The notes under the pieces are model-generated. The model was given only the letters and a program-made list of their open reading frames with translations. It made no database searches and had not been told where the DNA came from. The translations under genes were made by a program, and so were the position numbers. Of a DNA stretch of 64,000 nucleotides, positions 37,912 through 39,195 are shown in pieces (position 1 is the stretch's first letter; every line of letters begins with the position of its first letter). Source of the DNA: Chlamydiales bacterium (GTDB taxonomy: Bacteria; Chlamydiota; Chlamydiia; Chlamydiales; JAJFMA01); NCBI GenBank assembly GCA_030679955.1, contig JAUXSF010000012.1, positions 22,498-86,497 on the forward strand, in the 5' to 3' direction.

Positions 37912-39195
37912 ATGGATTCAATTAAGAATATTTTAAACACAATATCAAATTATTTACCCAGTCTTCCAAAGCCCGCTGACATTGGCGTTACATTATGCTC
38001 TGTAGCTATTCCAGCGTTAACTGCCCCACGCAGCGACAGCGAGGATACCGACAGTGGTTTTTTCACCGTACTACCTTTGGTTGCCGCACCGGTCTTGGCT
38101 GTAGGCGTATATGTGGCAATCAATAGATGCAAGCAGAACGAAATCGCTCCAATCAACATGCCACCAACTAGACCTCAGCTAATTCAAGCAGTGAACGCAG
38201 CGCTTGTCTTCAACCCAAACGGGGTGAAATATACTATCGGGGGTGGCTACGCAGTTGCTCTATCTAACTTCACTACTGTTAAAACTACATACAGTGACAC
38301 AGCAGGGGATCTGCGTGCGGAATTGGCAGAAAGATACGACGTAGAAACCGATAGAATCGGTATATCTTATATGGGCGCGCCCCTTGCAGACAGTATTAAC
38401 CTCTCAGGGTATTGGGTGGATGGCTATCCGCTTAATATAAGAGTTACAGAAAAACGTATAAAATCAGCTCGTTCTACTGCTCCAGTCAACATTCCACCAG
38501 CAATCCCTCAGCAACTTCCGGCAGAGCTTAATCAAAATGTCGTACCAGCACGGCCTTTACCTCAAAATGCGGGCACAACAGCTGTTTCTATTCGCGAACA
38601 AGTTATTAAAGCCGGGGTTTTATACAGAACGTTCACTCATAACTCTGTTGCCCAAACTAACTACGGACAAAAAATTATCGATCTCCGTGAAGAATTCGCC
38701 AGAGTAAACAATGTAGACCCCGAGACGGTAAAAGTATTTTATGCTGGTACTGAGATTACAAACAGTGATACGGCGATATGCGACCTAACACAAAACGGTG
38801 ACGGTCAAGTTTTAATTACGTCCGAAGCACCGTCTAAGCCTAAAAAATCAGATCGTTCTACTGCTCCAAGCAACACTCAAGAAACACCCCCCCAGCAACT
38901 TGCGGGCGAGCCTAGTCAAGATGTTGCGGACATAAAACCGGACGCTCTCTATCGTAAACATGTTATGCAGGGGCCCGTTTTATACATGACATTCAATAGT
39001 CGCGGTTTTGCCCAAACTACGTACGGACAAAAGGTTATGGATCTCCGTGCCGAATTTGCAGCAGCACGCAATATAAGTATCGATACGGTAAAGGTATCTT
39101 ATGGCGGCAAAGACATCACAGACAGCGACAAGACGCTGTACGACCTAACAGAAAATGGCAGTGGTCAAGTTTTAGTTCGAGAGTCTTTAAATTAA
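37912..39195 (+). CDS. Membrane-anchored protein with three tandem ubiquitin-like domains
   Basis: 427 aa. The N-terminus has two hydrophobic segments separated by a short acidic loop. Three ~75-aa units follow, each ending in a ubiquitin-like '(V/I)x(Y/F)xG..(I/L).(D/N)..T(L/I).D(L/Y)......(V/L)L(V/I)' signature. They are joined by repeated 'K(S)xRSTAP...PQQL' linkers. Confidence 0.7.
   Translation: MDSIKNILNTISNYLPSLPKPADIGVTLCSVAIPALTAPRSDSEDTDSGFFTVLPLVAAPVLAVGVYVAINRCKQNEIAPINMPPTRPQLIQAVNAALVFNPNGVKYTIGGGYAVALSNFTTVKTTYSDTAGDLRAELAERYDVETDRIGISYMGAPLADSINLSGYWVDGYPLNIRVTEKRIKSARSTAPVNIPPAIPQQLPAELNQNVVPARPLPQNAGTTAVSIREQVIKAGVLYRTFTHNSVAQTNYGQKIIDLREEFARVNNVDPETVKVFYAGTEITNSDTAICDLTQNGDGQVLITSEAPSKPKKSDRSTAPSNTQETPPQQLAGEPSQDVADIKPDALYRKHVMQGPVLYMTFNSRGFAQTTYGQKVMDLRAEFAAARNISIDTVKVSYGGKDITDSDKTLYDLTENGSGQVLVRESLN

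Follow-up and report, generated by a model that had tools for sequence, protein, structure and literature searches.

A chlamydial gene for a putative two-lobed membrane protein with three predicted tandem ubiquitin-like domains

Chlamydial inclusion-membrane (Inc) proteins are recognized by a two-lobed hydrophobic domain of 40-60 aa, in which two transmembrane (TM) segments of 15-32 aa flank a loop of 3-22 aa (search threshold 30; Dehoux et al. 2011, PMC3048545). The loops of known Incs tend to be rich in turn-formers and free of the charged residues K, R, D and E, a tendency that lies outside the formal definition (PMC3048545). Here we describe a gene, A427 (locus Q8K75_03510), whose 427-aa product is predicted to join a two-lobed domain to three tandem ubiquitin-like (Ubl) domains. 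It lies in a window of 64,000 nt, the whole stretch of DNA analyzed (GenBank assembly GCA_030679955.1, contig JAUXSF010000012.1, positions 22,498 to 86,497), which belongs to a 122,787-bp contig of the metagenome-assembled genome (MAG) “Chlamydiales bacterium”. In an NCBI look-up, 10 proteins of the contig, including aconitase, RF3, KdpB and an RND (resistance-nodulation-division) pump, carry this organism name, which is the submitter's classification. An initial annotation of the sequence had made its comparison with Incs conditional on an intracellular organism, and as far as the submitter's classification of the MAG goes, the organism is indeed a chlamydia. To our knowledge, all described Chlamydiae are obligate intracellular. 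Like IncA and IncD/E/V, the A427 protein is chlamydial, has an N-proximal two-lobed domain (here of 47 aa), lacks a conserved prokaryotic domain, combines a modular anchor with variable passengers and is a member of a paralogue cluster. Unlike these proteins, it appears to have a tandem ubiquitin-family passenger as well as an acidic loop, and its secretion and localization are putative.

The predicted passenger has counterparts in ubiquitin and in the integral Ubls of parkin, Rad23 and ubiquilin (PF00240), with which it shares the beta-grasp order b-b-a-b-b-a-b (b, strand; a, helix), the hallmark motif and, with the integral Ubls, the lack of a Gly-Gly tail. It differs from them in that its units are ~10-27% identical, have lost the recognition patch, fall below the Pfam cut-off singly and occur in a bacterial gene in three copies with long linkers. 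Polyubiquitin, ISG15 and FAT10 also hold several ubiquitin-fold domains in one polypeptide, but these are arranged head-to-tail or with short hinges, whereas the A427 protein has ~50-aa linkers, no Gly-Gly for processing or conjugation and a predicted membrane anchor. In HERP/Usa1, TMUB1/2 and the prenylated MUBs, a cytosolic Ubl that is not conjugatable is tethered by a membrane anchor, which in HERP is a hairpin, and docks the proteasome, E2 enzymes or factors of endoplasmic-reticulum-associated degradation. These proteins are host-encoded and have a single Ubl; it is their architecture that serves us as an analogy for the mechanism of the A427 protein.

The ubiquitin system is manipulated at pathogen vacuoles by Legionella AnkB and by C. 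trachomatis GarD and Cdu1. The presumed arena is the same, but such enzymes and adaptors write, erase or block, whereas the A427 protein would itself be the Ubl ligand. In the literature that we searched, chlamydial manipulation of ubiquitin comprises deubiquitinases, RING ligases and expansions of F-box/BTB and similar proteins (PMC4209131, PMC10643670, PMC12591485). Among bacterial genes, BfUbb of Bacteroides fragilis encodes a single domain that is 63% identical to ubiquitin and carries a Sec signal, and functions as a periplasm-targeting antibacterial toxin (PMC6194340, PMC11467351). Both BfUbb and A427 are bacterial genes of the eukaryotic ubiquitin family without a functional conjugation tail, presumably acquired horizontally, yet A427 is highly divergent, triplicated, predicted to be anchored and from an intracellular bacterium. 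The Ubls of bacterial defense systems (Bil and related) are different again, as A427 has neither a PADLOC match nor adjacent E1, E2 or JAB genes. Our literature search found no description of an Inc or chlamydial effector carrying ubiquitin-family domains, and BfUbb was the sole established bacterial homologue of eukaryotic ubiquitin that it returned. The Inc pattern and the ubiquitin family are both known; what would be new is an Inc-type protein with a poly-Ubl passenger.

The repeat units and the ubiquitin family

The initial annotation described a 427-aa product with three tandem units and duplicated Pro/Gln linkers. Every peptide quoted in it is present in the translation of the open reading frame (ORF), and internal alignment and DNA repeats bear out the arrangement (Table 1). 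Linker plus unit 2 (aa 179-307) is 47% identical to linker plus unit 3 (aa 308-427) over 119 aa (pairwise E = 1e-35), while unit 1 is 39% identical to unit 3 over 38 aa (pairwise E = 7e-7). At the DNA level, we find a 226-nt repeat pair with 70% identity (38592-38817 and 38952-39177) and, in the linkers, an 89-nt repeat pair with 78% identity. This internal repeat is far beyond chance. The linkers, of ~50 aa each, appear disordered in the structure model.

We are highly confident that all three units are ubiquitin-family domains. The Pfam ubiquitin profile (PF00240), one of the checks proposed at the outset, matches the whole 427-aa protein in 2 stretches with 29.0 bits (E = 9.1e-7), above the gathering score of 25.4. 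Searched singly, unit 1 scores 16.3 bits and the one unit of a shorter relative, P0001 (described below), 17.2 bits, both below this cut-off, and PF00240 is not listed for units 2 and 3 in single-unit Pfam searches. A profile built from four units, the three of the A427 protein and the one of P0001, was searched against all PDB sequences, and ubiquitin, polyubiquitin or a Ubl accounts for all of the 60 matches listed. The single-domain viral ubiquitin 6kna matches this profile with 33.6 bits (E = 2.3e-7), followed at ~1e-3 by the Rad23 Ubl, the parkin Ubl and archaeal/bacterial “putative ubiquitin”; the very low E-values against polyubiquitin chains are inflated, each being the sum of many ~12-bit domain matches. 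A profile without unit 1 still recovers 6kna (E = 4.7e-5), with the parkin and Rad23 Ubls at ~0.01-0.06, and therefore units 2 and 3 carry the ubiquitin signal themselves. The units also contain the ubiquitin hallmark motif (I/V)-x-(F/Y)-x-G-K-x-(L/I), and the assignment of unit 1 to the family is supported by its sequence match. Weak Pfam matches to DUF4309 (20.1 bits), DUF4054, FucT_N and Get5_N were dismissed as sub-threshold.

Structure prediction gives a similar picture. The single-sequence AlphaFold model of the whole protein is poor, with a mean predicted local distance difference test (pLDDT) score of 44.5, and was used for secondary-structure order only; units 2 and 3 have the order b-b-a-b-b-(a)-b, as in ubiquitin. 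Foldseek places linear di-ubiquitin, tetra-ubiquitin and ISG15 at the top of the matches to this model, below significance. The AlphaFold model of unit 2, made with a 4-sequence alignment, has a mean pLDDT of 61 and a core of 75-80, and its elements (b1 236-239, b2 244-247, a1 255-266, b3 273-277, b4 280-282, a2 289-293, b5 300-304) follow the beta-grasp order b-b-a-b-b-a-b. Foldseek finds 178 matches to it in the PDB at E<=1e-3, and the best 50 of the 178 are all ubiquitin, parkin Ubl, ISG15, SUMO, NEDD8 or other ubiquitin-fold chains, ubiquitin variants and one SUMO fusion tag included. The matches have a probability of 1.00, with a target TM-score (template modeling score) of ~0.7 to ubiquitin and 27% identity to the parkin Ubl. 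In a library of viral structures the matches are mostly ubiquitin-family, chiefly from giant viruses and baculoviruses. A beta-grasp fold of unit 2 is supported by this model. The initial alignment of the units with ubiquitin is borne out by the whole-protein PF00240 score, the unit profiles against the PDB and the Foldseek search with unit 2. The lack of a beta-grasp match for any unit had been named in advance as the result that would speak against the assignment; such matches were found for three units with sequence profiles and for unit 2 with the model.

None of the units ends in Gly-Gly, as had been read from the sequence: unit 1 ends in ...NIRVTEKR, unit 2 in ...VLITSEAP and unit 3 in ...VLVRESLN, directly before the stop codon. 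Because they lack this tail, the units are not conjugatable and are, to judge from their termini, integral Ubl domains and not modifiers. The RLRGG sequence, which we take to be where deubiquitinases cleave ubiquitin, is absent from them as well. In the alignment with ubiquitin, the core positions of the units are mostly still hydrophobic.

The N-terminal module and its relatives

The conserved N-terminal module of ~75 aa consists of a leader (23 aa), a first lobe (15 aa), a loop (11 aa) and a second lobe (21 aa). The leader follows the pattern M-[DEQ]-x-[IV]-x-x-[IL]-x-[NS]-...-L-P-S-[ILV]-P-[KR], common to every anchor-bearing member of the family. Hydropathy analysis delimits segments at aa 22-38 and 48-71, and A427 is the sole ORF of >=100 aa in the window with exactly two hydrophobic segments <30 aa apart. 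The initial annotation had compared this bilobed N-terminus, with its 11-residue acidic loop, to Incs. The hydrophobic stretches and the loop are there, and the domain (15+11+21 = 47 aa, by a hydropathy scale) falls within the formal Inc definition (PMC3048545), but the acidity of the loop departs from known Incs. On the Hessa scale, the lobes have +2.2 and +5.7 kcal/mol per 17 residues, both marginal, compared to a median of -1.0 kcal/mol for inner-membrane helices in the window, a control set that was threshold-selected. Marginal hydrophobicity is expected in membrane proteins that avoid the signal recognition particle and are exported by type III secretion. A lipoprotein was ruled out for want of a lipobox (Leu precedes Cys29, and the Cys is absent in P0001), as was a Tat signal, there being no twin arginine. 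We consider it likely that the two-lobed domain is a membrane anchor; for Inc-type export and localization, the sequence evidence leaves the question evenly poised.

Relatives of the A427 protein are few. An exhaustive phmmer search of 1.84 billion representative proteins gave 3 matches: P0001, a protein of 176 aa with the same anchor and one Ubl that is 43% identical to unit 2 (E = 1.5e-19); P0002, which is identical to the product of the neighboring gene B221; and P0003, of 230 aa, with the same anchor and a C-terminal domain of the B221 type. The design is therefore modular, in that this anchor is joined to one Ubl in P0001 and to a domain of another, unrelated kind in B221 and P0003. A word-index homology search with the full protein, the Ubl profile and the anchor profile found nothing, scans of GTDB genomes (full protein, Ubl profile) and of JGI metagenomes (Ubl profile, anchor profile) gave no confirmed relative, and tblastn against plasmids gave no match. 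In a collection of 15 billion proteins, the 90% cluster of the A427 protein is represented by a 35-aa ENA fragment (P0011), and because of this the protein is invisible to representative-based searches; its precomputed Pfam match in the same collection is marked only “faint”.

Comparison of the loci suggests rapid turnover. In two contigs of a related species (L003 and L004), which share ~83% DNA identity in the flanking genes, the same site holds only an orthologue of the neighboring gene C134 and a 49-aa anchor remnant, and A427 is absent. The ratio of nonsynonymous to synonymous substitution rates (dN/dS), measured on short alignments and noisy, is 0.17-0.34 in the anchor, 0.55-0.70 in the Ubl units and ~1.1 in the linkers, compared to 0.024 in the adjacent ABC2 gene. 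The anchor is the most constrained part of A427, and the linkers appear to evolve neutrally. Since dS between units 2 and 3 (0.57) is lower than that between the two species (1.28), the internal duplication that gave rise to these units is probably recent and younger than the species split. A modular anchor, swappable passengers and an unstable, fast-evolving locus are typical of host-facing effector families, and they also fit partial decay. In the contig with the P0001 gene (L002, 743-1374), this gene is followed by a repeat element and then abruptly by the internal/C-terminal part of the first ABC2 permease gene; this junction reflects either a rearrangement of the locus or, at the repeat, a chimeric assembly.

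Interpretations of the A427 protein

Based on these data, we propose that the 427-aa protein may follow the Inc pattern and serve an environmental chlamydia as a lineage-specific effector, a proposal for which we see about equal grounds for belief and for doubt. The leader would act as a type III secretion signal and the two-lobed domain would insert in the inclusion membrane as a hairpin, so that the C-terminal ~350 aa would face the host cytosol and project into it as a flexible, trivalent, permanently attached Ubl array. By analogy with the Ubls of parkin and Rad23 and with the membrane-tethered HERP, TMUB1/2 and MUBs, its most likely mode of action would be docking: the array could offer a platform to those host proteins by which integral Ubl domains are read, candidate partners being proteasome receptors, shuttle factors, E2 enzymes, p97 and autophagy adaptors. 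It might recruit host machinery to the vacuole surface, or divert or sequester it there, in a multivalent manner that would need no host conjugation enzymes and could not be undone by deubiquitinases. Any specific class of host partner is doubtful at best.

A number of observations weigh against this proposal. The loop has 4 acidic residues and 1 basic residue, unlike the loops of known Incs, and lobe 1 is short (15 aa) and weakly hydrophobic; the marginal hydrophobicity that would suit type III export equally weakens the claim that this lobe spans the membrane. In the paralogues, lobe 1 ends in PALAA, which resembles a site for signal peptidase and is followed by a permissive L, V or I. Several bearers of a two-lobed domain are reported to be absent from the inclusion (PMC3048545). 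With regard to the passenger, no single unit attains the PF00240 gathering score alone, and the model of unit 2 is of only moderate confidence. In addition, the Leu8/Ile44/Val70 patch is not conserved in the alignment with ubiquitin, these positions being F/F/T in unit 2 and F/S/R in unit 3; at the equivalent of Ile44, unit 1 has S and P0001 has I, and at that of Lys48, units 2 and 3 have T and K, respectively. Because this surface is not conserved, classical ubiquitin-binding domains may not recognize the units, and a “polyubiquitin mimic” for such domains is not supported by these residues. Lastly, the family is known from two samples only, which leaves almost no comparative power, and the dN/dS of the units, like the frameshifted and anchorless paralogues, is also compatible with relaxed constraint.

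Several of these points can be turned into explanations of their own. The A427 protein could be a resident envelope protein that is never exported, in which lobe 1 serves as a Sec signal or signal-anchor whose n-region is of unusual length, lobe 2 is a single TM helix and, by the positive-inside rule (R72, K74), the Ubls lie in the chlamydial cytoplasm, where they would serve bacterial protein-protein interaction. This would account for a short, weakly hydrophobic lobe 1, for its A-x-A-like end in the paralogues (PALAA) and for the basic residues after lobe 2; the gene adjoins an ABC exporter operon, and some predicted Incs do remain with the bacteria (PMC3048545). We nevertheless hold it to be unlikely, as the hydrophobic region begins only at residue 24, after a conserved leader without an adjacent basic cluster. 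The n-regions of Sec signals are typically short and not conserved. Furthermore, the sole AXA-like site of the A427 protein (L-T-A38, with the h-region beginning at residue 24) is followed by Pro39, and Pro at +1 disfavors cleavage by signal peptidase I. The nearest relatives of the domains are eukaryotic or viral ubiquitin, parkin and the Rad23 Ubl, and not bacterial ThiS/MoaD-type or defense-system Ubls, for which a PADLOC match or adjacent E1, E2 and JAB genes are lacking as well. The rapid evolution, presence/absence polymorphism and passenger swapping are typical of host-facing effectors. A secreted effector that acts elsewhere, with weak lobes that target another host membrane (endoplasmic reticulum, lipid droplets or mitochondria) or do not insert at all, would likewise explain the marginal hydrophobicity and a loop atypically acidic for an Inc; the strong association, in chlamydiae, of an N-terminal two-lobed architecture with inclusion-membrane proteins (PMC3048545) makes this a decidedly improbable account.

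Relaxed constraint, in turn, could mean that A427 is an evolutionary by-product, decaying or not yet functional: a duplicated Inc anchor would have acquired a Ubl of host or giant-virus origin, this Ubl would have multiplied through slippage or unequal recombination, the locus being unstable and repeat-flanked, and the gene would now drift without a maintained function. The dN/dS values of units and linkers, the frameshifted and anchorless paralogues next door, the sister species that retains only an anchor remnant and one C-domain gene, and the extreme rarity of the gene all fit such a history. It is improbable, however, given that the 427-codon frame is intact, that all three units keep a fold-determining pattern recognized by profile and structure prediction, that the units are more constrained than the linkers of the same gene and that a second species has an intact one-unit version with a conserved 5' region. 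We also considered whether chance or composition produces the similarity to ubiquitin, the units having some other fold, as could be argued from the sub-threshold scores of individual units, from polyubiquitin-chain scores inflated by summed weak domain matches and from the moderate model confidence. This has very little probability indeed: independent lines agree, namely the whole-protein Pfam score above its cut-off and the recovery of 6kna with two profiles (2.3e-7 and 4.7e-5), ubiquitin-family proteins make up nearly all significant matches, both in two structure libraries and in the sequence search of the PDB, and the secondary-structure order of units 2 and 3 is exactly that of ubiquitin.

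Should the proposed Inc-type effector prove correct, the display of a ubiquitin fold on the vacuole surface would be ligand mimicry and not enzymology, a different strategy from writing, erasing or blocking ubiquitin; it would be independent of host E1, E2 and E3 and proof against removal by host deubiquitinases. Inc proteins would gain a further type of passenger domain, and bacteria a second, independent gene of the eukaryotic ubiquitin type besides BfUbb. The array could also be a compact reagent for asking which host machines read integral Ubls at a membrane, and the locus, which captures domain gain, internal duplication and loss among closely related species, is a small natural experiment in effector evolution. 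The basis for this is one MAG of an uncultured organism and one relative, which gives only two family members, and a model of moderate confidence, with everything beyond the architecture inferred. A bolder version, which we offer tentatively and think less likely to be right than wrong, is that the chlamydia coats its own vacuole with an encoded, conjugation-independent and deubiquitinase-proof polyubiquitin-like, trivalent array on an Inc hairpin, which would recruit or jam readers of Ubls and ubiquitin (the proteasome, shuttle factors, p97 or autophagy adaptors). The neighboring paralogues may then carry a second beta-grasp (UBX-like) module, and the locus would hold a small collection of decoys, membrane-tethered and with a ubiquitin fold, that comes and goes within short evolutionary times.

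The A427 locus and its flanks

Four paralogous genes, of which A427 is the first, form a cluster between a YbhGFSR-like ABC exporter operon and aconitase (Table 1). The surroundings thus consist of ABC-transporter genes, paralogues and aconitase, with no adjacent E1, E2 or JAB genes. NCBIfam and PADLOC searches with the cluster proteins gave no match, Rfam found nothing in the window, and a promoter/terminator scan of the cluster was not above shuffled expectation.

Table 1. Features of the A427 gene, its product and the surrounding cluster (window coordinates; aa, residues of the A427 protein).
Feature	Position	Strand	Basis and remarks
A427 coding sequence (CDS)	37912..39195	+	ATG start; NCBI MDP1834976.1, “hypothetical protein”, locus Q8K75_03510
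Leader, aa 1-23, Ser/Asn/Ile/Pro/Thr-rich	37912..37980	+	alignment of anchor-bearing relatives; candidate type III secretion signal
Hydrophobic lobe 1, aa 24-38 (I24-A38), IGVTLCSVAIPALTA	37981..38025	+	hydropathy; helix 22-36 in low-confidence model
Acidic loop, aa 39-49 (P39-G49), PRSDSEDTDSG	38026..38058	+	sequence
Hydrophobic lobe 2, aa 50-70 (F50-I70), FFTVLPLVAAPVLAVGVYVAI, then basic R72, K74	38059..38121	+	hydropathy; helix 50-74 in low-confidence model
Predicted Ubl unit 1, aa 97-178	38200..38445	+	most divergent; LSGY where ubiquitin has LSDY; Pfam ubiquitin match aa 122-167
Linker 1, Pro/Gln-rich, aa 179-234, KSARSTAPVNIPPAIPQQLPAE...	38446..38613	+	DNA repeat; dN/dS ~1.1; pLDDT <50
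Predicted Ubl unit 2, aa 235-305	38614..38826	+	profile, structure model, Foldseek
Linker 2, Pro/Gln-rich, aa 306-354, KSDRSTAPSNTQETPPQQLAGE...	38827..38973	+	duplicate of linker 1
Predicted Ubl unit 3, aa 355-427	38974..39192	+	ends ...VLVRESLN, without Gly-Gly
Paralogue B221	39306..39971	+	same anchor (35% identity over aa 1-100), different ~115-aa C-terminal domain
Paralogue C134	39995..40399	+	B-type C-domain alone, no anchor
Paralogue D181, B-type C-domain	40404..41059 (called ORF 40514-41059, TTG start)	+	anchor N-terminus upstream at 40404-40513, out of frame
Left flanking direct repeat	37571..37779	.	9-bp array (TTATGGACC, 5 copies) and 86%-identical copy of aconitase gene 3' end
Right flanking direct repeat	41085..41282	.	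palindromic 9-bp array and genuine aconitase 3' end (CDS 41183-44065, minus strand)

The C-terminal domain common to B221, C134, D181, P0003 and the orthologue in the related species (L003 8961-9350, an orthologue of C134, which is the sole gene of the cluster to have one at the same site) is ~115 aa long and contains an invariant G-x-E-N-x-G-x-E. This domain has no Pfam, NCBIfam or PADLOC match, and hhalign found nothing between it and the Ubl profile. The best PDB match of its profile is the UBX-like (beta-grasp) domain of OTU1 (4kdi_C, E = 0.046), and it may be a second ubiquitin-fold module, an unproven lead from profile comparison. In D181, we find an apparent 1-nt frameshift near 40466, with one frame reading VITQPINNLFNSISQSLPSIP followed by a stop and the other ...VATIGVTLYTIAAPALALTNND...; the frameshift is identical in an independent Logan contig (L001) and marks either a pseudogene or an assembly error.

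The cluster is bracketed by a direct repeat of ~200 bp, which resembles what a duplication or an insertion would leave behind. The independent contig L001 (window 37716-41245) breaks exactly within these flanking repeats. The palindromic 9-bp array they contain (TTATGGACC, complement GGTCCATAA) is intergenic and occurs at 37571-37615 and 41084-41179 of the window as well as in related chlamydial contigs (L003 14993-15096, L005 887-935 and L002 ~770-815), and looks like a REP-like repetitive extragenic element of the lineage.

Elsewhere in the window, three hypothetical proteins have no meaningful NCBIfam match: one of 630 aa (28857-30749), one of 594 aa (51331-53115, minus strand) and one of 268 aa (11961-12767, minus strand). 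These may be additional lineage-specific effectors. At the corresponding position, the related species encodes a 621-aa counterpart of the 630-aa protein (L003 15172-17037).

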